From Candidatus Latescibacterota bacterium (GTDB lineage: Bacteria; Latescibacterota; UBA2968; GCA-2709665): a DNA stretch of 64,000 nt. Location: NCBI GenBank assembly GCA_965219455.1, contig OZ244744.1, forward strand, positions 384,001-448,000, given 5' to 3'. The position numbers were made by a program, and so were the translations under genes. How positions within the stretch are numbered: the stretch's first letter is position 1; each line of letters begins with the position of its first letter. Below, piece by piece: positions 23,381-35,596 of the stretch. The notes beneath the pieces were generated by a model. The model made no database searches. It had not been told where the DNA came from and saw only the letters and a program-made list of their open reading frames with translations.

Positions 23381-24355
23381 TTACCTAGCCAGGAAATGAT
23401 ACGTGGCGCCCACATGGAACTGGTAATCGGAGGTTAGCTGGCTTTCGTTCACGTTCTGGTAAACGGGAAGCGGCAACCTCGCTTCGAGGCTCAGATTCTC
23501 CATTGCCCGTACGCCCAGCTTCGGCGCAAGATAAAGCCACGTGCCCCCGCGTTTTCGGGCTATCTTTCCATATTGGAAATAGTCGCGAGCCGTGTGAACG
23601 TGGTTCAGGCTGAGACCCGCAATAAACATGTCTCCATGCATATATTCCATTGAAAAGATGCCCTGAAACTCGTTCCCGTATTTGTAGCCATATACATTCT
23701 CGCGGGAAATAATGCGTGTGAAAAGCATACCGGAGAAAAACAGGTTGTCGAAGGCGCGCGACAGACTAACGGAGAAGATGGGGTCCATGCTGCCGGAACC
23801 CACCTGCAGCAAGTCGGCGAACCGCTGGCCATACTCATCGACCGCATGGGTCGACCCGTTCGCGAGCTTGACGCCTGCCGAAAAAAGCAGCCCAGGCAAT
23901 GCTTCCGGCAGAGGCGGAGCAAAGTTCAACATCAGGACAACGTCGCCGAGACCGGCGGCACTCCGGACATACTCGCCGCCCAGATACTGGTTGTCGTACT
24001 GACCCGGAAGAAGAAATTTGTCGTTGGTTATGGAACGAAACGGAAGAACAACGGCAGCTCCGAACCATTCGTTGACACCATAACTTGCGAACACCGACAC
24101 CGTTGAAATGCTGGTCACTTCCTGGTTGACGTTGGGGATCGGCCCTGTACCGAACATCGCATCGCCCAGAAACTCATGCTCGTAGTTCACGCTCAGAACG
24201 AAAAGATCCTGGGTAATCAGACTGCCCTGGAGCATTCTCCCGCCCGGGAGCACGGGACGACGTCAACTCACGCCTGGTTGCGCCGGCACAGATTTGTTTC
24301 CCGGAACCAGGTGGGTAAAAAGGACCAACGCCAAAACCGGTAAAACCCGTTTCAT
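23381..24355 (-). CDS. Putative selenoprotein outer-membrane beta-barrel (MetA-pathway/transporter-like), in-frame TGA at codon 31
   Basis: GAGGAG RBS 8 nt before ATG 24355. Signal peptide MKRVLPVLALVLFTHLVPGNKSVPA, then QPGVS-TGA(24265-24263)-RRPVLPGG, in frame with the 290-aa ORF (GLGDV, QVGSGS.D, Y.YGNE, C-terminal aromatic strand). Confidence 0.7.
24237..24250 (-). promoter_or_regulatory. SECIS-like hairpin
   Basis: CTCCC-GGGC-GGGAG; the loop begins 17 nt after the in-frame TGA. Confidence 0.55.
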
Positions 24356-24397
24356 CGTCCACGCTCCTCAAGCATTGTGGTTGGCGTTCAATAAAAA

Positions 24398-24901
24398 CTA
24401 GCCCTTCAATGCCTTATCCAGCAATTTTCTGAATTTTCGAAAGGAAGCGTACCCGGAAAATAGGACCTCCCCCCGGCCGTCTACGATCACCACGGTGGGT
24501 GTAAGCCGGGTCTCGAAGGCCTCGAACACTCGCCCATCCGTATCGATATAGCTGTGCAGAGATTCTTTCCTGCCGGCAAAATAGGTCTGGATCTCCTCCG
24601 CGCTGTTCTTCCACGCGATGCCGAAGACCTGGACCTTCTCTCCGAATTTCTCCCTTAACTTGAAGACATGCTTCATATCCTTCTTACATGTCGTGCACCA
24701 GGTGGCCCACAGATAAATGAAGGATGTCTTTCCTTCGCAAACCTCCGCCAGACTCAACGTATCACCCTCGAGCGTGACGACCTGCACCAGAGGCAACGGA
24801 TTGGAATTTTCGTCATTTGCGAACCCGATATCGGGGAAACAGAAGATAAGGCCCGCCCCCAGCATAACACCGGTGATCCAGACCCGTTTCGTCCCGCCCA
24901 T
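24398..24901 (-). CDS. TlpA/ResA-type exported thiol-disulfide oxidoreductase
   Basis: AAGGGAG RBS; signal peptide; LWATWCTTC and TPTVVIVD motifs. Confidence 0.85.
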   Translation of the reverse strand: MGGTKRVWITGVMLGAGLIFCFPDIGFANDENSNPLPLVQVVTLEGDTLSLAEVCEGKTSFIYLWATWCTTCKKDMKHVFKLREKFGEKVQVFGIAWKNSAEEIQTYFAGRKESLHSYIDTDGRVFEAFETRLTPTVVIVDGRGEVLFSGYASFRKFRKLLDKALKG

Positions 24902-24966
24902 AATCACTCCCTTAAAGAACGGCATCCATACCCGAAAACGATGTCGCCGGCCGACCGATTGATAGA

Positions 24967-26163
24967 TCACCTTTTGACGATTTCCTTGTACACCACGCGA
25001 ATCCGATGGTTGAACGTATCGGCGATGTACAGATTCTCGTCCTGATCGAGCGCGACCCCATAGGGATTCCTGAGTTTTCCCCATCGGGGATGGTCGCTGT
25101 CGCCCTTGAAACCCGGCTCACCACACCGGCCGGCCAGGGTGGTAATGATACCGCCGGTATCCACCTTGCGGATGCAATGGTTACCGGTATCGGCAATGAA
25201 CAGGTTTCCCTCCGCATCGACGACCACGTCGCTGGGGCGCGAAAGGTTGGCCTCGGTCGCCGGTCCGCCATCTCCCGAATACGTTCCGGCAGTCGGGCCG
25301 ATACTGCCGCCGCCGGCCACCGTGCTGACCCTGCCGTTGGTGTCCACCATGCGGATGCGATTGTTGAACGTATCTGCGATATAGAGGTTGCCCCGGATAT
25401 CCAGGGCAATCCGGCCGGCGGGCTGCGCCGCGTCTCCCGTCGGCGCATAGAGGTCGGCCAGAATGGCAGGGCCACCGTCGCCGGCAAGTCCTTCCCGTCC
25501 GGTTCCCGCAATCGTCGAGATCAAACCGTTCAAATCCACCATACGAATGCGAAGGTTGCCCTGATCCGAGATATACATACGGCCGGATTCGTCGAAGGCC
25601 GTGGAACTCGGAAGATTCAACGAGGCCTCGAGAGCGGGGCCGCCGTCGCCCCCGAAACCGCGTTCGCCCCGGCCGGCGATGGGTTCGACGCGGCCCGTGG
25701 TGAAATCATACCTCAGGATCCTGGAATTCTGCCAGGCCGAAAGGATCAGCCGTCCCTGAGGATCGAATGAAATATGGGTCGGGTGGTCGATGCCCACCCG
25801 CAGCGCCGGACCCGCAGGCGCATCGCCCGGTTCGCCGTTGCCGATAAGAGGACGGACGACTCCGTTGTGGATCTCAAGAACGCGATTGTTGTTCCAATCC
25901 AGAATGTACGTCCGCCCGTCGGGACCGACAGTCATATCCTGGGGAAAATACAGGTGCGTATCCAGAGGACCCAATCCCGTGGCGTTCCTGCCTGCATCTC
26001 CGGTGCCGGCGAGGGTGATCATGATCCCGTAGGGCAACCCCGGGTACTCTTCGTACAGATCATCGTCCACGGTGGGCGGCGTTTTGCCGCAGTCAGCCAC
26101 AGAGAGGAGCAGGCCGAACGCAAGCAGGTACCGCGCCCACACATGTTCGAGGATTCTCTTCAT
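24967..26163 (-). CDS. NHL-repeat (teneurin-like) exported protein, possible lipoprotein
   Basis: Repeated GNLYIADT.N.RIR and GF.GDGGPA..A.L..P units; N-terminal hydrophobic stretch followed by Cys. Confidence 0.85.
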   Translation of the reverse strand: MKRILEHVWARYLLAFGLLLSVADCGKTPPTVDDDLYEEYPGLPYGIMITLAGTGDAGRNATGLGPLDTHLYFPQDMTVGPDGRTYILDWNNNRVLEIHNGVVRPLIGNGEPGDAPAGPALRVGIDHPTHISFDPQGRLILSAWQNSRILRYDFTTGRVEPIAGRGERGFGGDGGPALEASLNLPSSTAFDESGRMYISDQGNLRIRMVDLNGLISTIAGTGREGLAGDGGPAILADLYAPTGDAAQPAGRIALDIRGNLYIADTFNNRIRMVDTNGRVSTVAGGGSIGPTAGTYSGDGGPATEANLSRPSDVVVDAEGNLFIADTGNHCIRKVDTGGIITTLAGRCGEPGFKGDSDHPRWGKLRNPYGVALDQDENLYIADTFNHRIRVVYKEIVKR

Positions 26164-26362
26164 CCGTATTTGTACGACCTCTCCAAGTTGAGCAGAAACG
26201 GCGCCTATCCGAGCCAGGAACGATACCTAACAAAAATAGGTACAATGAAGCACCGATTCAACCCCGAAATTGAACCAGATCTCAAAATGGGGCGCGCCGA
26301 ACGGGAATCTCTGGACCCGGCGATGGTCGGCGCAAGTCGATCGATGATACAACCGCGTGCTT

Positions 26363-27247
26363 TTATACGCCCGAAAACGCCTGATATTCTGCCAGTGGCT
26401 GGCTCATCCGGTCGTCGACCTCCGTTAACGCAAGGCGCATGCGAACCGTGCGACGACTGCCGGGTACGAGGTCGTCGCCGAAGAGAGAAAAATCAAATGC
26501 GCTGTAATCCGTCATGCGATCGGCTTCGTCCGCAACGTGGTAACGGGTACTGATGGCATAGCAGTCCTCTTCCGTAGACATCAACACGACCCCCAGCCGA
26601 TTCCCGGGGGCCGTCAGGAAGGAAAACGGATACCCGTAATACCTCACCGGGCACATCTGGACAGTGGGCGAGTTGCTCTCACTACGATTCCAACGTCCGT
26701 CTACGCAGCGCCTCGCGGCATGCGGGTCCCGTGGAAACACAATGACGGTTCCTCGAAAGACGTCGTTCACCATGGGAACGACCCGTTCGGGGTCCACGCT
26801 CGCGCGGCCGTACCGGCTTCCGTGGAGATAGATGTGGGGTCGTAACGCCTTGTCGAAATAGTTGGAAAGGAAGAGCTCATATCCCGCATAGGTCCCGTCA
26901 CACCTCACCGTCACCGTCAGGTCGATGTGATTCGGCTCGCCCACCTCGTAGCGGGCGGTCAACGCGCCCTGATGGGTTTCAGTGGCGGCCCAATGCACCT
27001 CAACGGCGTTGTCCCGGGCTTCGACGGTGCGGTCCATCAGGCGCGGTTGGTCCAGACCCTGATGAACGGCAAATAGCCGAAACAGGTTCAATGCCGAATA
27101 TTTCGGATGGATCACCTGTCTCCCTGTGTTCCTTTCCGTTAGTGTCCAGACCCCGTGATAGTCTCCCGATGCCCGAATTTCGCCGGTCATGGCTTCCGTC
27201 TCGAATTGATATGTATCGGTGCCGGCATCGTATACCAGTTCGGCCAT
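26363..27247 (-). CDS. Hypothetical protein
   Basis: GGAGAG RBS before MAELVYD; 294 aa; directly downstream of the ceramidase-like gene. Confidence 0.7.
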   Translation of the reverse strand: MAELVYDAGTDTYQFETEAMTGEIRASGDYHGVWTLTERNTGRQVIHPKYSALNLFRLFAVHQGLDQPRLMDRTVEARDNAVEVHWAATETHQGALTARYEVGEPNHIDLTVTVRCDGTYAGYELFLSNYFDKALRPHIYLHGSRYGRASVDPERVVPMVNDVFRGTVIVFPRDPHAARRCVDGRWNRSESNSPTVQMCPVRYYGYPFSFLTAPGNRLGVVLMSTEEDCYAISTRYHVADEADRMTDYSAFDFSLFGDDLVPGSRRTVRMRLALTEVDDRMSQPLAEYQAFSGV

Positions 27248-27261
27248 GTCGATCTCTCCGT

Positions 27262-28719
27262 TTAAGACTGACGTGCAACCACGAGTTCCTCGATTCGTTC
27301 CGCAATCGCGTCTGTCAGGGTCTCCAGACAGCCCGGGGCCAGGCTCGACGGCTCCTCCTGGTAAAGGCCCTTGCCGTACGCGTCTTTCCGCAACAGATAA
27401 GCGACCTGTAAATTGCCCGAAAGTGGAGAAACCAGAATCACGAACCCGGGAAATCGCCGGCGCAACTCGACCTGCAGAAAGCTGTACGGTTCCCCGCCGC
27501 AGGTCACCCAGATCGCGTCTCCCATTCGATAGACGGAGAATCGATACGGGTATGTCTCGCCCGGCGGCAGGTTCGCGATCCGCGCCAGCCATCGCCTCGC
27601 CCGCTCCGCCCGGGCACCGCACGATCGGGCCTGCGGGGCGTCTCCGGCCGCGTCGGCTTCCCGCTCGGCTTCCGACCACCGTGCCAGATCCGCCAGGAGC
27701 GCTTCACGGTCCGGCTGTTTTTTCATCGGGAGGTCCACGGAATATACGCCGCCGGAAATGACCGAAACGCCGCGCAAACGCCCATCTCCGAATCCCACGT
27801 GCGCCCATGCACCCAGCGTGGCGCCTGAGATCACGGGACCCTGGTATTCGAAATCCGTGCCCGGCGGACCCATGGACATGACCACGGACAGCGCCGCAAA
27901 CCCGAGCTGGCGTCCGTTCTTCTCAGCGACTTCCGGATCTCCCAAAAATCCGTCTCTCGGCCCCAGATCCCCGCATGGCGCCAGGGCGAACGTGCAGGGC
28001 GCCCCGGTTACCCTCTCGACTTCCTCCCGCATCGCACCCACGTAATCCGGGCTGATCAGGGTATTTTTCCAGGCCAGCGTGGTCGGATGGCATCCGTAAT
28101 TCACCACCGTCGCAGTGGTCCTGCCCTCTCCGTCGCTTATCCGTCCCACCAGCAGCGTATCGTCACCCTCACCCTCCGGATTATACCCGCATACGTAGCC
28201 TCCGAAGACTTTATCCCGATAGTCCCTGTCAGCCGCCATGTTGCAATGCCCGCGCGCATAGGTAATCAGCACCTCCCGCATACCCGCCAGCGCCTCCCCG
28301 CAGGCCCGCGCCAGCTTTTTCTCCACGTCCTTCAGAAACGGCTCGATCAGTTCGCCTCCCGGCAATTCGAAACGATCCGGCGCGTACCATCCGGAGGAAT
28401 GGGTGTGGGAGTACGTCACGTCCACCCGATCCTGCCCCACCCCGGCGGCAACGCTGAGCGAATCCACGAGCGCCGCGTGCTGCTGAGCCACCAGGCCGAC
28501 CAGGTCCACGTGCGCCCGAACCAGCCGTATTTCTCCGGGTGCGTCCACCGGCCCGAAAACCAGCACGTCACCCGGAATCGAACGATGAACGCCCGTTGCC
28601 CTGTCGTGCCTGGCCGCGCCCCACATCCGGTGATAAATCCCCACCGGCGGCGTTATATCCACACGGGCGAAACCGAGCCGAACCCTGGAGGTCGGGGCCG
28701 GCACTTTTCTTCGAACCAT
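27262..28719 (-). CDS. Neutral/alkaline ceramidase-like amidohydrolase
   Basis: G.ARVDITPP.G, SHTHS, NYGCHPT, ISPDYVG and CGD motifs. Confidence 0.75.
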   Translation of the reverse strand: MVRRKVPAPTSRVRLGFARVDITPPVGIYHRMWGAARHDRATGVHRSIPGDVLVFGPVDAPGEIRLVRAHVDLVGLVAQQHAALVDSLSVAAGVGQDRVDVTYSHTHSSGWYAPDRFELPGGELIEPFLKDVEKKLARACGEALAGMREVLITYARGHCNMAADRDYRDKVFGGYVCGYNPEGEGDDTLLVGRISDGEGRTTATVVNYGCHPTTLAWKNTLISPDYVGAMREEVERVTGAPCTFALAPCGDLGPRDGFLGDPEVAEKNGRQLGFAALSVVMSMGPPGTDFEYQGPVISGATLGAWAHVGFGDGRLRGVSVISGGVYSVDLPMKKQPDREALLADLARWSEAEREADAAGDAPQARSCGARAERARRWLARIANLPPGETYPYRFSVYRMGDAIWVTCGGEPYSFLQVELRRRFPGFVILVSPLSGNLQVAYLLRKDAYGKGLYQEEPSSLAPGCLETLTDAIAERIEELVVARQS

Positions 28720-28813
28720 ACTGACCCTCTCTGTGTTATCAATGATGGATGCAGACGTATATCGATCTGTGCACGCGCCAGCTACCCTCTCCCACCGTCG
28801 CCGTTCCCGGCCA

Positions 28814-29536
28814 CTATCGCAACTGATACGCGATCGCGTAGGCCGTCTTGTGCGCGCCCGAACGGTTTACCTCCGACCGATGCCACGTGTAATTCGAGAA
28901 AAACGCGGCGTCCCCCGGCTGCATCGACAACACGACTTCCCTGGATAGGTCCAATCCCTCTGTCGGAATGCGCCAGCGGGTGAACGGTTCGGCCGTCCGG
29001 GCGGCATAATAATTGGGCTCATCGTAATAACGCTCGTGGGTTGTCAGGGTCCAATCCCTGTGAGTCCCGGGCAGAATACCCAGCGCGCTGGCGTCGACTC
29101 CTACTTCATCCAGCGCGATCCAGGCATTGCAACCCTGCCTCGGCTCGATCTTCCAGTAGTAGGAATCCTGGTGATAGAACGACTGGCCGTCGATTGCCCG
29201 GTTCTTGATTAACGCCTGATCCGTAAAACGCTTCACCTGACCGCCCAGAAGCCGGGACATCGCCCCCTGCAAATTGACGTGGTCCGCAACCTGCCGGAAG
29301 ACGGCCTCCTGTCTGGCGGGTCTCTGGACGCCGATCGGCACGAACTCGTCCCTCGTGTTGCGGAACTTCACGGGATCCAATATCTGAAAATGCAGATCCG
29401 GCCAGTCGTGCTCTCCCTCCAGTAATTCCAAAAGCCGCTTCCGCACCGCGGCCGCCTCAGCTGCCGAAATCAGCCCCTGTACGGTGGTATATCCCTCTTC
29501 CTCGTACTGCCGCAATTTCGACTCGTCCAGTTCCAT
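28814..29536 (-). CDS. Phytanoyl-CoA dioxygenase (PhyH) family protein
   Basis: Y.EEGY, HQD, WIALD, PGTH, PGDA.FF and WHRS..N (HxD...H facial triad). Confidence 0.88.
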   Translation of the reverse strand: MELDESKLRQYEEEGYTTVQGLISAAEAAAVRKRLLELLEGEHDWPDLHFQILDPVKFRNTRDEFVPIGVQRPARQEAVFRQVADHVNLQGAMSRLLGGQVKRFTDQALIKNRAIDGQSFYHQDSYYWKIEPRQGCNAWIALDEVGVDASALGILPGTHRDWTLTTHERYYDEPNYYAARTAEPFTRWRIPTEGLDLSREVVLSMQPGDAAFFSNYTWHRSEVNRSGAHKTAYAIAYQLR

Positions 29537-29625
29537 GTGACGTTCTCCTGATCACCTGCGTTTATCATAACGCTATAGCGGATATGGTGTCGCCGCGTGC
29601 AGGGCCCACGTCGAATAATCCAGAA

Positions 29626-30627
29626 TCATCCCTCACTCTCGACCCTTCCCACCGCGTATCCCATCCCCGTTGCACCGAACCCGTTTCCGGTATACCAGCA
29701 CCTGTATTCGTCGCCGCATTTAACGACACTCACGTAACACCGTTGCTTGTCGTCGAACGCGCCCGGCGCGCCCACGCCCAACTCCCCGTCGGACCCGCTT
29801 TCGCACCAGCGCCATTCCTGTCCGTCGGGTCCGACCAGACTCCTTATCCGATAGGCCGTACCAAACGTGTTCACCCACATCCTGTAACCGTCAGGTTCCC
29901 GCAAGACGAAGGGCTTTGAACAGATGTACTCGTAGGGTTCGGTGTCGAAACCCCTTGGACTGACCATCAGACCATTCAGCGGCTTGGCCCACGTCAACCC
30001 GTCTGCCGAAACCGCGTAACCGACCCCTATGCGGGGTATCACATCACCGTGGCCCGTCCTGGCGCCCTCGGGCCGGGCGAAATAGGCCCCGATAGCCGTA
30101 TAATACATATGGTACCGATCGCCGTCGTGCAAGACAAATACGCTTCCGGTTCCCTCTCGGTCCCAGTCCCGGTCCATCAGCAAAATCGGTTCTTTTTGCA
30201 GGTAATCAAAACGGTATCCGCCGTCTGCGCTGAACGCCACGCCCGTGGTGTTGGGCAGTTTGCCGTCCGCCCTGGGTTTCCCCCACCCGCAGAAATACAG
30301 GAGCCATGGGCCGTCTTCCCTGGGAACCACGAACGGGAACCCCGGCCCCTGATCGTTATACGCCGTGCCGGGCTGCCGGTCCAGCACGGAGCCCAGCGGC
30401 CGCCAGTCGTTCGGCGCATCAATATGGCTCTCGGCCAGCAGATTGTGATGGTACCCATCCGTTCCGGTTCCCCAGTAATACATCCGGTATCGATCTCCGA
30501 CCTGGACAACATGCGCGGCGCCGGCGCGCCGGCTATCCATATCTGCGTGCAGCTGACCCGGCGCGACCACCGGATTGTCGCCGCTGAACCTCCAGACTAT
30601 CCGTCTGGAAAGCGGGTTCCGTTCCAT
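29626..30627 (-). CDS. Five-bladed beta-propeller glycoside hydrolase-like protein (GH32/43/130-like)
   Basis: Repeated Y.MYY, A.S.DG..W and P.V motifs; ends YTGNGFG.TG.GYA. Confidence 0.65.
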   Translation of the reverse strand: MERNPLSRRIVWRFSGDNPVVAPGQLHADMDSRRAGAAHVVQVGDRYRMYYWGTGTDGYHHNLLAESHIDAPNDWRPLGSVLDRQPGTAYNDQGPGFPFVVPREDGPWLLYFCGWGKPRADGKLPNTTGVAFSADGGYRFDYLQKEPILLMDRDWDREGTGSVFVLHDGDRYHMYYTAIGAYFARPEGARTGHGDVIPRIGVGYAVSADGLTWAKPLNGLMVSPRGFDTEPYEYICSKPFVLREPDGYRMWVNTFGTAYRIRSLVGPDGQEWRWCESGSDGELGVGAPGAFDDKQRCYVSVVKCGDEYRCWYTGNGFGATGMGYAVGRVESEG

Positions 30628-30682
30628 TAATCACCTCCACGGGGAAAGATGCGGGAGTAGCGCGATGTGGGTCTGAAGCCCG

Positions 30683-32272
30683 TCAGGCTCGGCGAAGCAC
30701 CTGGCCGTACCGCTGTCCCGTGACAGCGCCGTCCCTTACTGTGAAGCCGCCGTTTACCAGCACGTGCCGCATACCCACGGCTGTCCGATTGGGCTCTAAC
30801 GTGGTTCCTCTCTCGGCAAACATACTCGGATCGAAGACGGCCAGGTCCGCCCGCGCACCCTTGCGTATCGCGCCGCGGTCGGTCAGCCCCAACCGCGCGG
30901 CCGGCAGCGACGTCAACCTGCGCACGGCCTCCTGCGGATTGAGCAGCTTCCGTTCGCGGACGAAATGACGGTAAAACCATGATGCCCACGTATAGGCGCC
31001 GTGGAAAGTATTATCCTTCAACGGGCCGTCCGCGGCCAGCGCGGTCGCATCGGATCCGACCATGCAGAACGGGTGTTCAAATGCCGGTCGAACGTCCTCC
31101 TCGCGATAACTGAACGCGATCACCATAATTTCGTGCAGATAGTCGATTCCCGCATACAAAATATCGCAGATGACGTCAATGGCATTGCCGGTTCCGGCGG
31201 CAGTGAGTTCGGCAATACGCTTTCCCGTCAGTTCCGGCTGCGCGGGGGAGTGGAAGATGACGATCCGTCCCCAGTCGCCCTGCGCCAGCGCAGCAACGAT
31301 ACTCTGATAGCTTTCCATCTCGCGGCGGACGGACGGATCCCGCAGCCGCCTCGCGATGTCTTTTGAACGTCCCTCCAGCGCCCATGGCGGCAGAGCGGCG
31401 CTCAAGTTGGTGGTCCCGAAGAGCCGTGTATGCATATCGAACTGCACGTCCAGCCCGCTGCTGCGCGCCCGGTCGACCTGCTCGAGCGCCTGTTCGACCG
31501 CCCACCGGCCGTCTTCCGCGAGCCTGGCAACGGACGAAATATGCGAGATCTGCAGGGGCGCGTCTGCCGTTTCGGCCGTGCGAATCGCCTCCGCGACGGT
31601 CTCCTCCGCCTCTCCCACACGGTTGCGGGTATGGGTCGAGTAGATCCCGCCGTATTCGGCAGCGATCGCGCACAGCTCGGAAATCTGTCTCTCGGGGCAA
31701 TCCCGCTCCGGACCGTATTCAAGGCCCGTGGAATATCCCGCCGCCCCCTCCTCCATCCCCTGCGCCAGCAGGCGCTTCATCGTCCTGTGTTCGTCCGGCG
31801 TGGACGGACGATCCACCGCCTCGCAGACCGCCAGTCTCAGATTTCCGTTGGGCACCAGCGTCATGACATTTACGGCCGGACGCTGCGCCTCCAGGCGATC
31901 CAGGTACTCGCCCATGGTGCGCCAGTCAATCTTATGCTCGGCTCTACATCCGTATATGTTCGCCCTGGCACGCGCAGGGTCGCCAATCGGCGCGCACCCA
32001 TGCCCGCAGTTCCCCACCACCTCGAGCGTTACGCCCTGCAAGACCGAACTCACCGCCCGCGGGTCCACGACCAGGGTGAAATCGGAATGACTGTGAATAT
32101 CGATAAACCCGGGCGCCACGTAGCAGCCGGCCGCATCCACACACGGTACGCCCTCCGGCCGCCGGAACCGGCCGACGTCGACGATCCGGCCGTCGGCCAC
32201 GGCCACGTCGGCCCGGACCGGCGGGCTACCCGTACCGTCAACTACCGTCCCGCCCGAAATCACCATATCCAT
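30683..32272 (-). CDS. N-acyl-D-amino-acid deacylase (amidohydrolase)
   Basis: VVDGTG, APGFIDIHSHSD, GVT..V.GNCG, STGL.Y, GSD, RGAI..G..AD..VFDP and VLVNG motifs. Confidence 0.9.
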   Translation of the reverse strand: MDMVISGGTVVDGTGSPPVRADVAVADGRIVDVGRFRRPEGVPCVDAAGCYVAPGFIDIHSHSDFTLVVDPRAVSSVLQGVTLEVVGNCGHGCAPIGDPARARANIYGCRAEHKIDWRTMGEYLDRLEAQRPAVNVMTLVPNGNLRLAVCEAVDRPSTPDEHRTMKRLLAQGMEEGAAGYSTGLEYGPERDCPERQISELCAIAAEYGGIYSTHTRNRVGEAEETVAEAIRTAETADAPLQISHISSVARLAEDGRWAVEQALEQVDRARSSGLDVQFDMHTRLFGTTNLSAALPPWALEGRSKDIARRLRDPSVRREMESYQSIVAALAQGDWGRIVIFHSPAQPELTGKRIAELTAAGTGNAIDVICDILYAGIDYLHEIMVIAFSYREEDVRPAFEHPFCMVGSDATALAADGPLKDNTFHGAYTWASWFYRHFVRERKLLNPQEAVRRLTSLPAARLGLTDRGAIRKGARADLAVFDPSMFAERGTTLEPNRTAVGMRHVLVNGGFTVRDGAVTGQRYGQVLRRA

Positions 32273-32320
32273 GGTATTTTTTTCGATTCGCGAACCTGAT
32301 GGAACCAACTCGCCCATACT

Positions 32321-32359
32321 AAAAAAACAGTCTCGCAAGGTAACGCCATTACGAGACCG
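32321..32359 (-). terminator. Intrinsic terminator after ankyrin gene 1
   Basis: Minus strand GTCTCGTAA-loop-TTGCGAGAC followed by TGTTTTTTT. Confidence 0.75.
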
Positions 32360-32390
32360 TCCCGACACCTGGCACCAATACTGAAAGCAC

Positions 32391-33113
32391 TTACCTGTTA
32401 CTCCCTTCAAGCAACCGCAGGTCGGCCTTTATTAGAAGATTCACGATATCCAAATGCCCATTCTCGTAAGCCAAATCCTGTGCGGTTTTTCTGTCCGGCG
32501 AATCGTGAACCTGTTGGGGATACGTACGATTAAGATATCCGATCCTCTTAGGCGTGCGGCTGTTTGCGTCGACACCGGCGTGTCCACGTCGATCATAAAG
32601 GCGACTTCGAGTAGAGCCACTTTTTTTACGCACGTCCGCGCCTGCCTGGATCAGCGCTTTGACGATCTCCACGTGCCCCCTCTCAGCGGCGAACATCAGC
32701 GCCGTTTTCCCGTCTCTCAGCGCAAGGTTGGCGTGGTAACGGGAACGATGCGCCATGAACAGGGACTGAGGTCCGGAACTGTCGACATTTACGAACCGCT
32801 CTCGGGTAAGCTCTGGAGCCAGATGGCGGTAGATGCGCGTACGCGAATTTGCGCCTATAGTCCAAGCCCTGACATCCAGTTCCGCACCGGCCTGAATCAA
32901 CGCCCGGACTACGTCCAGGTGCCCTTCCCTGGCCGCCAGCGTCAGCGGGCTTTGCCCCTGAACCGTCCTGGCATTCACGTCGTGTCCATCGTGCAACGCC
33001 CGCTGCACGGCTTGCAGGTCTCCGAGCTCTGACAATTCCATCAACGAGGCGCCGCAACCCCCCACACCCATCACGATCAACAGAAATGCAAATGGCTTGA
33101 TCGTTCGAGACAT
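32391..33113 (-). CDS. Ankyrin-repeat lipoprotein
   Basis: GGAGG RBS; lipobox VGGC; GQSPLTLAAREGHLDVV and GKTALMFAAERGH ankyrin repeats. Confidence 0.85.
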   Translation of the reverse strand: MSRTIKPFAFLLIVMGVGGCGASLMELSELGDLQAVQRALHDGHDVNARTVQGQSPLTLAAREGHLDVVRALIQAGAELDVRAWTIGANSRTRIYRHLAPELTRERFVNVDSSGPQSLFMAHRSRYHANLALRDGKTALMFAAERGHVEIVKALIQAGADVRKKSGSTRSRLYDRRGHAGVDANSRTPKRIGYLNRTYPQQVHDSPDRKTAQDLAYENGHLDIVNLLIKADLRLLEGSNR

Positions 33114-33163
33114 TGGCCGCCTCCGCTGTGAGTCGATCATCGATCCTGCTCGTTCCAATCGAA

Positions 33164-33192
33164 AATATATCCACCTTCGCCTTTTAGGTCAA
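33164..33192 (-). promoter_or_regulatory. Putative sigma70 promoter for ankyrin gene 1
   Basis: TTGACC-17 nt-TATATT on the minus strand. Confidence 0.55.
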
Positions 33193-33244
33193 ATCGTATC
33201 TCGACCCCCAATACCATAGCCGGAATTCTCCGCGACTAATTCGC

Positions 33245-33928
33245 TCATGGCCCTTCGACATCGACCCCGTTTTTAAGTAGCCTCAAGACTTCCTTCTCCA
33301 CTTCATCGTAGTCTATCTTTCCCGACCACTGCGCCACGATCCGACTCTCTCTATCGAGAAGATACATGGCCGGAATCGCTTTCACCTTGAACTGATACCA
33401 CGCGGGGGTCTGTTTCTCTTCGACAAAGATGGGATAGGAAATATCCAATTTGCCCACCATCTTCCTGATCTTCTCAACGCGGTCTTTGTCTTCATCAATA
33501 GACACACCCCAGACGTCAAAACCCTTGCCGGAATACGCGCTGTAGAGTTTCTGCAACCGGGGCATCGTCTCAAGACAGGGTTTGCACCACGTGGCCCAGA
33601 AATCCACGAGCACGACTTTGCCCTTCAAATTCCTCAACGACTTGTCCCCGCCCTCCAGTGTTTCAATGACGAAGGCAGGTGCAGGCCGCGGGAATACCGG
33701 TGGCAAATAAGCCACGGGATCTGCGTCGAATTCCTTTTCGCAGTTTTCAGAACAGAAATAGTACGCCTTGCCTTCATATTCAGAATGGGCTTTGACCTTT
33801 TCCAACTCCGTCTCGCCGCCCTTCAATGCACAGACAGGGCAGAGCGCCGTTTCGGGAATCCGCGTTTCAGCGAGAAGCGCTGGCGGACCTGACAAAACAA
33901 TCAGAATTAACAGAACGCTAAAACGCAT
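33245..33928 (-). CDS. Exported YHS/TRASH-domain + TlpA redoxin fusion
   Basis: Signal peptide; CPVC...YEGKAYYFCSENC...F..DP (YHS/TRASH); GKVVLVDFWATWCKPC (TlpA); GGAGG RBS. Confidence 0.88.
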   Translation of the reverse strand: MRFSVLLILIVLSGPPALLAETRIPETALCPVCALKGGETELEKVKAHSEYEGKAYYFCSENCEKEFDADPVAYLPPVFPRPAPAFVIETLEGGDKSLRNLKGKVVLVDFWATWCKPCLETMPRLQKLYSAYSGKGFDVWGVSIDEDKDRVEKIRKMVGKLDISYPIFVEEKQTPAWYQFKVKAIPAMYLLDRESRIVAQWSGKIDYDEVEKEVLRLLKNGVDVEGP

Positions 33929-33939
33929 TGATCCTCCAT

Positions 33940-34602
33940 CTAAAACCCGAGTGAAAGCGACAAACCCATGGTTTCAAGCCACACATAAATCACACTCACT
34001 CCGTATTGAGCGGCGAAATAATTCAGCATCAGGTGCCCCCGGTCGCCGTCGTACATCGGTCGAAATGAAAAGCCTTTGCCCAATTCGACCCCCACGCCAA
34101 AGGGAACATTGAGCTTCTCATCCCATTCCGAATAATTCAAACTGCCATAAAAAGACGTGCGCAGCCGGGGTATATATTTGCTTATCGTCGCAAAGTAAGA
34201 TTGTTCGCCCGCCGGCGAACCGATTCGATCCGAACTCGTGCCCAAGAAGAGCGCAGGCCGCGTCTCGGTCTCGGTTAACAGGAACAGAGTCACAAGAGGT
34301 CCCGCCTCTTTGGCTTTCGGGTTCAGCTCAACCCCGACCTGCAGGCGATGATGCAAACTGTAATTGGCGGTGAACCGCCACTGCGGGCGGTCCATTGAGG
34401 TATCTACGTACCGCCCCGAAAATGTAATCTTCGTATGGATGCCACTCCCCCGGAGTGGTGCGCCTTCGCCCGGTCAGCCTACTCACGTAGGTGTCATCGA
34501 AAATGTCGGCCGTTCACTCCGCGTGGAATCCGCGTCCGATTCCTGTGCAAAAACGGGGGAGGTACCGAGGTATAGGATCAAGAAAAAAAGGACGAATTTC
34601 AT
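33940..34602 (-). CDS. Putative UxxU selenoprotein outer-membrane beta-barrel (in-frame TGA at codons 40 and 43)
   Basis: GGAG RBS before ATG 34602. Signal peptide MKFVLFFLILYLGTSPVFA, then ...MTPT-TGA-V-G-TGA-PGEGAP... in frame with the 151-aa ORF, which ends in an amphipathic strand with terminal Phe (GLSLSLGF). Confidence 0.72.
34442..34458 (-). promoter_or_regulatory. SECIS-like hairpin
   Basis: CCACTCC-GGG-GGAGTGG; the loop begins 22 nt after the second TGA. Confidence 0.55.
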
Positions 34603-34798: not shown

Positions 34799-35596
34799 CT
34801 ATCTTGAACTCGATGGAGTCATCCCGGCGCCCGTTTCCAGGAGTAAATCGATGATCTCTTTATGTCCGTTCTGGTAAGCGAAGTCCAGTGCCGTGCTTCC
34901 GCCGATCGACCAGGAAGGACGGCCGGGGTATGAATGGACAATATCGTAATAGAGATGGCGGCCATGCTCAGGCCCGTAGTAACTGCCGCCATGTTTATCC
35001 TCTTCGTGTCCGATGTCTTCCGGTTGCGCGCCGGTGTAACCAGCGATATACCCGTCATAATCCTTATACGAAGGCATTCCGGAGGTCACGATTTCACCGC
35101 CGCTTGTCGCGAACAGGTCGGCGCCGCCTTCGACAAGCGCCTCGACAACATCCAGGTGACCGCCCTCGGCAGCAAGCATCAACGCTGTTTTACCGTCTCT
35201 CAGTACCCAACTCGCCGAGCCGCGTGTACGCTGCGCCATAAACCTGGACTGGGGCCCGGAACTGTCGGGGTTGACATACCGTTCCCTGATGAACGCGTAG
35301 CCGCCATGTCGATCCTGGCTTTCGACAGTATGGGCGCCTACGGTCCATGCCACGGCGTCGAGGTCCGCGCCGGCCTGGATCAGGGCCAGAACGACCTCCA
35401 GGTGACCCGCCCTGGCTGCCAGCGTCAACGGGCTGTGCCCCTGAGGCGTCCTGGCATTCACGTCGCGCCCGCGATCGAGGGCCCGCTGGACGCCCGTAAT
35501 GTCTCCACGCTGTGACAATTCTGTCAGCGAAGCGCTGCATCCGGCCGCGCCCACCAGTAAAAGAATCAGCGTTAATCTATTGATTTTAAAGGACAT
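34799..35596 (-). CDS. Ankyrin-repeat lipoprotein (paralog of 32391-33113)
   Basis: Lipobox AAGC; GHSPLTLAARAGHLEVV, GKTALMLAAEGGH and TALDFAYQNGH repeats. Confidence 0.85.
   Translation of the reverse strand: MSFKINRLTLILLLVGAAGCSASLTELSQRGDITGVQRALDRGRDVNARTPQGHSPLTLAARAGHLEVVLALIQAGADLDAVAWTVGAHTVESQDRHGGYAFIRERYVNPDSSGPQSRFMAQRTRGSASWVLRDGKTALMLAAEGGHLDVVEALVEGGADLFATSGGEIVTSGMPSYKDYDGYIAGYTGAQPEDIGHEEDKHGGSYYGPEHGRHLYYDIVHSYPGRPSWSIGGSTALDFAYQNGHKEIIDLLLETGAGMTPSSSR

Follow-up and report, generated by a model that had tools for sequence, protein, structure and literature searches.

Two outer-membrane barrel families with predicted selenocysteine, each linked to its own exported TlpA-like redoxin

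Outer-membrane channels of the COG4313/PF13557 (Phenol_MetA_deg) family are represented by Pput2725 (PDB 4RL8) and FapF (5O65). Selenocysteine (Sec) in exported outer-membrane barrels has been described for the GSU2204-family MtrB/PioB barrel (NF041027) and for the TonB-dependent receptor FCYXU (NF049945) (PMC13188914). Two Sec residues three positions apart (UxxU), served by one downstream hairpin, occur in Prx-like proteins (PF00578), the NF041115 metal-binding protein, the FmdB family and SelL. On the side of the redoxins, PMC6669012 describes how, in Bradyrhizobium, the periplasm-facing thioredoxin TlpA keeps the Cys pair of ScoI and CoxB reduced before copper binding, and PMC4626032 presents a YHS domain as the probable copper sensor of a mycobacterial cyclase.

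The window analysed here (the whole stretch of 64,000 nucleotides, from a Candidatus Latescibacterota bacterium) holds two cassettes, each combining a TGA-containing barrel gene with a gene for an exported TlpA-like redoxin (Table 1). For both, the Sec coding, the fold and the linkage to a family-specific exported TlpA were established computationally, and the two cassettes point to unstudied envelope machinery whose most likely task is to deal with soft metals, copper among them. The first-pass annotation had described two barrels without obvious similarity, each beside a co-directional TlpA with a signal peptide; its coordinates and its gaps of 42 and 11 nt are correct, and all four genes share one direction.

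Table 1. Features of the two cassettes and their neighbours (positions in the window)
Feature	Position	Strand	Description
Barrel 1 (B1)	23381..24355	-	324 aa, signal peptide, 12-stranded COG4313/PF13557-like outer-membrane barrel
B1 Sec UGA	24263..24265	-	codon 31, mature residue 6; sole in-frame TGA
B1 SECIS-like hairpin	24237..24250	-	5-bp stem, GGGC loop 17 nt past UGA
TlpA1	24398..24901	-	exported TlpA/ResA-like redoxin, WCTTC; ends 42 nt before B1
NHL beta-propeller, probable lipoprotein	24967..26163	-	PF01436; upstream of TlpA1
Ankyrin-repeat probable lipoprotein	32391..33113	-	PF00023; local neighbour of B2, outside conserved cassette
YHS-TlpA	33245..33928	-	exported; four-Cys YHS/TRASH-type domain and WCKPC TlpA domain; B2 ends 11 nt before it
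Barrel 2 (B2)	33940..34602	-	220 aa, signal peptide, small 12-stranded barrel, UxxU at codons 40, 43 on N-terminal arm
B2 Sec UGAs	34483..34485 and 34474..34476	-	PT-U-VG-U-PGEG; CxxC in Cys-form homologues
B2 SECIS hairpin	34442..34458	-	7-bp stem; GGG loop lies 31 nt past the first UGA and 22 nt past the second
Ankyrin-repeat probable lipoprotein	34799..35596	-	PF00023; local neighbour of B2, outside conserved cassette

Predicted selenocysteine coding in the barrel genes

Both pore genes appear to be broken by stops, and both almost certainly encode Sec, as judged from their sequences. The genome contains tRNA-Sec (selC), selA, selB and selD. Within the phylum, selA is present in 28/29 genomes with B2 and in 17/18 with a B1 UGA, which is a weak test because the background is already 131/168. 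The UGA is kept in 30/30 B1 loci, and the UGA/UGA pair in 200 of 201 B2 loci (a redundant set, with 137 distinct bodies). Weak B2 profile matches without stops (L266, L267, L283-L298) found no counterpart by tblastn and were left out. In Cys-form relatives of B1 the UGA position matches, without gaps, the first Cys of a CCSAGTP or CSC tip, and in two close homologues Ser replaces Sec. Ten database homologues of B2 have CxxC at the UxxU site.

Bacterial SECIS elements are described as having a stem of 4-16 bp and a loop of 3-9 nt, with G in its initial two positions, lying 16-37 nt past the UGA (PMC13188914). Both hairpins follow this rule, with the loop at +17 in B1, which is also its position in selD of the same genome, and at +22/+31 in B2. 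Both show compensatory changes at synonymous positions; in B2, Leu3xGly3 is Watson-Crick in 92/93 (0/10000 permutations). A strict hairpin regex did not pick up the B1 hairpin, the minimum free energy (MFE) fold of B1 is not the covarying stem, and the MFE values of the SECIS regions, -15 to -17 kcal/mol, are no better than those of shuffles (z 0.15 to -0.65). A coding-potential scan recovered the UGAs of selD and of FdhA-, SelW- and ArsM-like genes, and missed those of both barrels. Sequences resembling Shine-Dalgarno (SD) sites, GAGGAG in B1 and GGAG in B2, precede the ATG of the signal peptide, and the downstream starts chosen by gene callers lack an SD-like sequence.

It is extremely improbable that the UGAs are stops, in pseudogenes or split genes, or Trp codons. 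Such a reading could draw on W/W in three database proteins and C/W in one at the UGA positions, and on short-form annotation in 118/120 and 26/29 homologues among the matches listed. However, the DNA underlying P0066 reads TGA/TGA (L088, 98% identical), and UGA also terminates the same gene in several genomes and therefore does not stand for Trp. Upstream of the UGA, signal peptide and frame are conserved, and by conservation, Cys homologues and SECIS covariation the TGAs behave as Sec codons, the point on which the first-pass annotation had made its proposal depend.

Barrel folds and redoxin partners

Structure prediction gives a 12-stranded barrel for both proteins, with the N-terminal segment of B1 and the N-terminal arm of B2 inside the lumen. 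The B1 model matches the COG4313/FapF fold with Z 26.3 and rmsd 2.3 over 255 residues, and its N-terminal arm superposes on the pore-spanning luminal helix of autotransporters. B1 itself has no Pfam match (PF13557 included); its homologues P0135 (53% identical) and L045 score above the PF13557 cut-off. The B2 model reaches Z 16.1 over 164 residues, with 4RL8, FapF and KdgM tied (Z 16.1/16.0/15.6), and B2 has neither a Pfam match nor a sequence link to PF13557. Neither barrel matches NCBIfam at E<=1. Profile-profile comparison of the two families (hhalign) gave a probability of 42% over 20 columns, and there is therefore no clear sequence relationship between them.

Both redoxins carry WCxxC and score above the cut-off for PF08534/PF00578 and below those of the NCBIfam TlpA/ResA equivalogs. 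Both look soluble, with a cleavable signal (signal peptides were called by eye and with a crude hydrophobicity rule). The YHS domain of YHS-TlpA matches PF04945 with E 9.5e-10, and its Cys10, 13, 39 and 43 are invariant in 57/57. There is one DsbD-type gene (DsbD_TM) in the genome. With 14 redoxin genes among about 3973 ORFs, the chance of one gene neighbouring a redoxin is about 0.7%, a figure calculated post hoc.

Judged from gene neighbourhoods, the pairing with a redoxin is real and partner-specific for each barrel family, as the enrichment suggested by the first-pass annotation would have it; the linkage and conservation counts given here include related, non-independent genomes. Orthologues of TlpA1 were found only with B1, in exactly the 17/168 genomes of the phylum that have a close B1, and TlpA1 lies upstream of B1 in 4/4 Sec-form genomes of a second phylum. 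Among Cys-tipped relatives of B1, a TlpA-like neighbour was seen in 1/47 loci (flanks mostly 1.5 kb), and distant relatives adjoin cupredoxins, an MbnH-like peroxidase or DUF3179. Wherever the flank is long enough, Sec-form B1 loci have a lipoprotein neighbour: the NHL gene lies upstream of TlpA1 in this family only, and in another phylum a different propeller lipoprotein is found downstream of the barrel, so that TlpA1 stays beside B1 while the lipoprotein partner varies. The genome also holds a B1 paralogue that retains Sec and a propeller lipoprotein and is without TlpA (none within 5.5 kb in this genome; absent in 4/4 paralogue loci checked). The proposal made in the first-pass annotation is partly supported: both families have conserved, family-specific partners, but this paralogue departs from the pattern.

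YHS-TlpA is, on the evidence of gene linkage, the probable dedicated partner of B2. It adjoins B2 in 48/54 informative 90%-identity clusters, in 25/29 loci of one further phylum and in 6/14 of another, and across the 168 genomes of the phylum the two genes are kept or lost together. All 29 phylum genomes with a near-full B2 have YHS-TlpA, and the single additional genome that carries it shows a deleted cassette. An adjacent YHS-TlpA is missing in one B2 clade (12 loci) and in 8/14 loci of one phylum, and it was found elsewhere in 4/5 of the non-adjacent genomes tested. No recurring metal transporter or regulator was found around B2, where YHS-TlpA is the sole conserved neighbour. Pairwise identities of the two proteins correlate (Spearman 0.79), for which shared descent alone suffices. 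There are also YHS-barrel fusions, in which CxxC takes the place of UxxU, the YHS is in tandem and a TlpA domain is absent; one member of this cluster is named Armatimonadota, and a search of viral contigs with a fusion as query gave no match.

The first-pass annotation had treated the two loci as one recurrent module with exported repeat proteins at each. In fact they are two independent cassettes on the same plan, close together only in this genus: B2 occurs without a close B1 in 22/29 genomes, a close B1 without B2 in 10/17, and the spacing of about 11 kb is confined to the 7 members of the genus in which both occur. The NHL and ankyrin genes are indeed present, but the ankyrin genes lie beside B2 in close relatives only and were rejected as members of the cassette. 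Coverage of the region by metatranscriptome contigs is thin and patchy, is similar for neighbouring genes, and does not bear on expression or co-transcription. Promoters and terminators scored no more often in a scan than in shuffles (10 vs 6.4+-2.7; 8 vs 12.6+-4.0).

A possible mechanism and its alternatives

In the reading that we prefer, to which we give a probability of about 0.4, a selenolate site in the pore would capture a soft metal, and the partner would reduce that site and, through the YHS domain, take the metal. After export, each barrel would form a 12-stranded pore in the outer membrane, its N-terminal arm folding into the lumen with the Sec (UxxU in B2, one U in B1). The selenolate(s) would there form a site for capture or gating, most likely of Cu(I), with Ag or Hg possible. 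TlpA, fed by DsbD, would keep the Sec site reduced, acting on the barrel while it crosses the periplasm still unassembled, or on an arm that has swung out to the periplasmic side. The four-Cys YHS domain of cassette 2 may then receive the metal from the arm, comparable to the way TlpA readies ScoI/CoxB Cys pairs for copper. In cassette 1 a beta-propeller lipoprotein is present as well, and the substrate there may be a different one. The YHS domain and the Sec arm are putative metal sites, and we infer that the partner role of TlpA is to reduce the barrel Sec with DsbD/CcdA electrons. Hints of a metal come from the YHS-barrel fusions, the invariant Cys of the YHS domain, the cupredoxin, MbnH-like peroxidase or DUF3179 neighbours of distant B1 relatives, and the copper precedents for YHS and for TlpA with ScoI/CoxB. 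Counting against this reading are the lack of a recurring metal transporter or regulator around B2, the B1 paralogue without TlpA, the close B1 homologues with Ser, and the B2 loci that lack an adjacent partner. The Sec arms (pLDDT ~60) are modelled inside the lumen, away from the periplasmic TlpA, and access would therefore require movement of the plug or action before assembly. Diselenides are hard to reduce (PMC2397514), and a UxxU diselenide has a very low potential.

The motif UxxU/CxxC is typical of redox proteins, and both families conserve a dedicated TlpA. Together with the overlay of the B1 arm on the autotransporter helix, this would suit a relay without metal cargo: the Sec arm would pass DsbD/TlpA electrons through the outer membrane and reduce oxidants on the outside or proteins of the surface; in a variant, its oxidation state would open and close the pore. 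We consider this unlikely, in that it leaves the invariant four-Cys YHS and the TlpA-less YHS-barrel fusions unexplained, and mature B1 has a single U without a resolving Cys. It is rather unlikely that TlpA acts on something other than the assembled barrel, be it its own YHS Cys, the co-encoded lipoprotein, or folding and transit, with the Sec site independent of it. The luminal position of Sec in the models, the rarity of TlpA-like neighbours at Cys-tipped B1 loci and the paralogue that kept Sec and lipoprotein but lost TlpA would agree with this; however, TlpA1 could serve that paralogue in trans, a third gene is absent from B2 cassettes, and TlpA1 is kept beside B1 while the lipoprotein changes.

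The clear COG4313/FapF fold of B1 raises the further possibility that these are channels for an organic substrate (hydrophobic, organoselenium or organosulfur) or for lipoprotein export, in which Sec would be a catcher that binds covalently or a structural clip. PMC4493636 links the COG4313 family to the uptake of hydrophobic molecules, FapF is titled a secretion protein, and a lipoprotein gene accompanies the Sec-form B1 loci; yet recurring catabolic genes are seen beside neither barrel and the YHS of B2 is left unexplained, and we regard the proposal as decidedly unlikely. In a bolder reading, the cassettes might form a new class of envelope machine with at least two origins, a pore whose luminal plug carries a selenolate/diselenide switch; a dedicated periplasmic thioredoxin would reset it and, in one family, also carry a metal chaperone domain. 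We put this forward only tentatively and with some doubt.

Significance and comparison with known systems

If this last reading is true, soft-metal or redox traffic would cross the outer membrane by a selenium-based route coupled to a reductase, and the system might include a natural reductase of protein diselenides. The two families are widespread predicted selenoproteins, shortened in sequence databases, and neither is in Pfam, NCBIfam 20.0 or a 2026 catalogue of 119 families; the families of Haft and Tolstoy 2025 were covered through the table of the review and NCBIfam. In B2 the UxxU, itself rare, lies in a membrane pore. Cassette 2, with two genes, small and self-contained, and with natural Cys-form and fused counterparts, offers a test bed for Sec in an oxidising envelope, and bears on thioredoxin reduction of a protein diselenide and on soft-metal passage across the outer membrane in uncultured phyla.

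B1 shares the fold of the COG4313/PF13557 channels; homologues of it pass PF13557, and B1 itself does not match that model. The barrels described here differ from those channels in a longer, Sec-tipped arm and a dedicated TlpA. Compared with the TlpA-ScoI/CoxB system, the presumed client is a Sec-bearing outer-membrane barrel, and the TlpAs appear to be soluble proteins, one of them carrying a YHS domain. The NF041027 and NF049945 proteins likewise place Sec in an exported barrel, but belong to other barrel classes than B1 and B2. B2 has the spacing and single hairpin of the known UxxU selenoproteins, but whereas those have a thioredoxin fold or are small and soluble, its UxxU is on the plug of a membrane pore. 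Finally, the YHS/TRASH domain (PF04945) is here exported, and is fused to TlpA or, in Cys-form homologues, to the barrel itself.

Two barrel genes and the decoding of their TGA codons

The first-pass annotation reported two TGA-containing barrels, B1 and B2, each beside a TlpA redoxin with a signal peptide, and all of these features are recovered when TGA is read as selenocysteine (Sec, U). TlpA1 (WCTTC) ends 42 nt before the start of B1, and B2 ends 11 nt before the start of YHS-TlpA (WCKPC). Both barrels begin with a signal peptide preceded by an SD sequence and end in an aromatic-rich strand. Neither has a match in Pfam (E ≤ 0.1) or NCBIfam 20.0 (E ≤ 1), and comparison of their family profiles gave no clear similarity, in keeping with the earlier impression that the two are unlike. 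A genome-wide scan for a signal peptide, a UGA and a long frame gave 83 candidates, nine of them with a hairpin; B1, B2 and a B1 paralogue are three of these nine.

Features of the two cassettes and further sites (C1, contig of the host genome, where the window spans 384001-448000; other positions are those of the window unless a locus is named)
Feature	Position	Strand	Remarks
B1	24355-23381	-	324 aa, U31
TlpA1	24901-24398	-	cassette 1
B2	34602-33940	-	220 aa, U40 and U43
YHS-TlpA	33928-33245	-	cassette 2
Ankyrin probable lipoproteins	32391-33113; 34799-35596		paralogous (46% identical), flanking cassette 2
B1 paralogue	C1:5700575-5701540		outside the window; 54% identical to B1, same UGA and hairpin
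Decaying cassette 2 (genome G139)	L337:4442-6055		barrel deleted, TlpA broken by insertion
In-frame TGA with hairpin	C1:634525	+	between hydrophobic N-terminal segment and TlpA-like redoxin domain; could be Sec, read-through or a broken gene
Probable selenoprotein (motif)	C1:3107795-3108181	+	presumably redoxin with one TGA
Probable selenoprotein (motif)	C1:588350	+	presumably AhpD-like CxxU
Probable selenoprotein (motif)	C1:1254110	+	presumably SelW-like CxxU
Probable selenoprotein (motif)	C1:1621896	-	presumably arsenite-methyltransferase-like
Probable selenoprotein (motif)	C1:5417399	+	presumably FdhA-like
tmRNA, two copies	C1:2870202-2870561; C1:2872398-2872757		same tag, 2.2 kb apart

The host genome has tRNA-Sec, selB, selA and a Sec-containing selD. 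In 80 metagenome loci of B2 the codons are TGA/TGA in 78 and TAA/TGA in one, the last being truncated; over all fetched loci, 200 of the 201 that bear the motif have TGA/TGA (a redundant set, with 137 distinct coding bodies), and these come from the host's own phylum and three others, reached via genomes G169, G171 and G172. The same gene is terminated by UGA in several genomes. Database proteins that reach the motif carry CxxC (10), W/W (3) or C/W (1); for one of the four W-bearing proteins, P0066, the underlying DNA was examined and is TGA/TGA, and its W is therefore a gene-calling artefact. For B1 the codon is TGA in 30/30 loci, at identities down to 28%. Its U aligns without a gap to the first Cys of CCSAGTP/CSC relatives, and two full-length homologues have Ser at this position.

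The B2 hairpin has 7 bp and lies 22 and 31 nt 3' of the two UGAs, distances that fit the bacterial SECIS model as set out in section 5 of PMC13188914. Among distinct 36-mers coding PLRGS, Leu3 and Gly3 form a Watson-Crick pair in 92/93 (C-G 80, U-A 12), a level reached in 0/10000 permutations, which is an overstated figure because the sequences are related. The hairpin Leu is CTC or CTT in 93/93 versus 31% in the barrel body, and the Gly is GGG or GGA in 93/93 versus 39%. Eight further 36-mers code other peptides, seven of them with an equivalent hairpin. In one variant locus (L305) the post-UGA peptide is changed to PVGGD with the hairpin kept at the same place; a search of that genome found no YHS-TlpA orthologue. 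The B1 hairpin has its loop at +17, as in the host selD, and its stem in 17 distinct sequences is CTCCC/GGGAG (13), CTTCC/GGAAG (3) or a variant (1). Folding energies are no better than those of shuffles, and a generic hairpin also follows 74 of 1304 ordinary UGA stops, both of which count against the SECIS reading. On computational grounds, B1 and B2 are shown to encode Sec, as the first-pass proposal needed; it is most improbable that the UGAs are not Sec.

Linkage of each barrel to its redoxin

YHS-TlpA lies next to B2 in 109 of 133 loci, is displaced in one and missing from 18, the other five being too short; by cluster, the two genes are adjacent in 48/54 informative clusters at 90% identity and 22/25 at 80%. 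YHS-TlpA is the sole broadly recurring neighbour in these loci. In two further phyla it is adjacent in 25/29 informative loci and in 6/14, and four of five non-adjacent genomes tested have an orthologue elsewhere. Across 168 genomes of the host's phylum, YHS-TlpA is present in all 29 with a near-full B2; the one extra carrier, making 30, is G139, where a deletion fuses the B2 signal peptide to an interrupted YHS-TlpA. The five genomes with only B2 fragments have no YHS-TlpA at E ≤ 1e-40. Within the genus, both genes are present in 7/15 and neither in 8/15. All 57 partners compared keep the four YHS cysteines and WCxPC unchanged, and five Cys-form B2 homologues have N-terminal YHS domains fused ahead of TCAGC and the barrel, one cluster member of these fusions being named Armatimonadota. 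The ankyrin probable lipoproteins beside cassette 2 differ in copy number and order among genus members.

TlpA1 orthologues occur in exactly 17 of the 168 genomes, these being the ones with a close B1, and lie directly upstream each time. In a second phylum, all four Sec-form genomes have TlpA1 upstream of B1 and a β-propeller lipoprotein downstream; at two loci there (L263, L264) the operon comes after genes for a PorV-like barrel and for an FG-GAP protein whose C-terminal domain is of the T9SS type. A B1 copy in G008 (28% identical) is followed, at a distance of 1.4-1.8 kb, by two TlpA-like genes. The predicted enrichment of redoxins thus holds for B2 and for close B1, and fails for the B1 paralogue, which has no TlpA in 4/4 loci checked (in the three whose flank exceeds 5 kb, the barrel is followed by the propeller lipoprotein). 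This paralogue adjoins tRNA-His/tRNA-Arg and is common to all 15 genus genomes. The two B1 paralogues form one clade (support 97/94), which, subject to the position of the root, would fit a duplication that separated the partners. We regard the partner specificity of the barrels as established.

Non-Sec B1 relatives have a TlpA-like neighbour in 1/47 loci (flanks mostly 1.5 kb). Scanning 34 of their 105 listed neighbours, picked by eye, found DUF3179 in 11 loci, cupredoxins in two and an MbnH-like peroxidase in one. The DUF3179 lipoproteins adjoin Cys-tipped (CCSAG/CSC) relatives (L173, L174, L185-L188, L193, L195, L196, L199, L200), the cupredoxins CDYC-tipped relatives (L222, L226) and the peroxidase a CGxxxC form (L178). 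DUF3179 is itself a listed selenoprotein family.

The first-pass annotation took the cassettes for one module recurring within about 11 kb, and this does not stand: they assort independently, with 22/29 B2 genomes lacking a close B1 and 10/17 B1 genomes lacking B2, and they lie ~10 kb apart only in the seven genus members holding both.

Position of Sec and possible function

AlphaFold2 models, built with U replaced by C, are 12-stranded barrels for both B1 (pLDDT 88.0, pTM 0.84) and B2 (pLDDT 87.0, pTM 0.82), and we consider this fold secure; the N-terminal arms score about 60. For B1 the match to Pput2725 has a Z of 26.3 at rmsd 2.3 over 255 aligned residues, and FapF is matched as well. B2 matches Pput2725, FapF and KdgM with near-equal Z of 16.1, 16.0 and 15.6. 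According to passages of PMC4493636, the first 14 residues of Pput2725 enter the lumen from the periplasmic side. The structure comparison pairs residue 12 of B1 with residue 1 of Pput2725, and residue 17 of B2 with its residue 5, and B1 residues from 1 onward fall within the range aligned to autotransporter luminal segments. Because of these aligned ranges, Sec6 of B1 and Sec21/24 of B2 (mature numbering) are predicted to lie inside the pore.

Selenolates have a high affinity for soft metals. The reading we prefer, with a probability of about 0.4, is that a selenolate site carried by the arm inside the lumen would bind a soft metal or gate the pore, and would be kept reduced by TlpA fed by DsbD, of which the genome holds one DsbD_TM gene. 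In cassette 2 the YHS domain of the partner might take over the metal, by analogy with TlpA-ScoI/CoxB as presented in parts of PMC6669012; elsewhere, YHS is described as a probable copper sensor (PMC4626032).

Several points weaken this reading: Sec is predicted to be buried in the lumen, metal genes do not recur near B2, B1 has Ser variants and a TlpA-less paralogue, and diselenides have a low potential (passages of PMC2397514). Among the alternatives, the redoxin could serve a client other than the barrel, which is unlikely but comes before the rest; a pure redox relay or gate comes after it, and a channel for an organic substrate or for lipoprotein export is less likely again.

Comparison with known selenoproteins and barrels

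Neither family appears in Table 1 (119 families) of PMC13188914 or among the passages of PMC9312934 consulted, and the main texts of BSepDB, deep-Sep and SelCysML (supplements and BSepDB sequences lying outside the comparison) make no mention of a barrel, porin or outer membrane. A literature search, with Haft and Tolstoy 2025 outside its scope, found no paper on either family. That the soft-metal or gating site with its redoxin represents a new class of machine is nevertheless doubtful: two other classes of outer-membrane barrel are already catalogued as carrying Sec, and neither the fold of B1 and B2 nor the types of their reductases are new.
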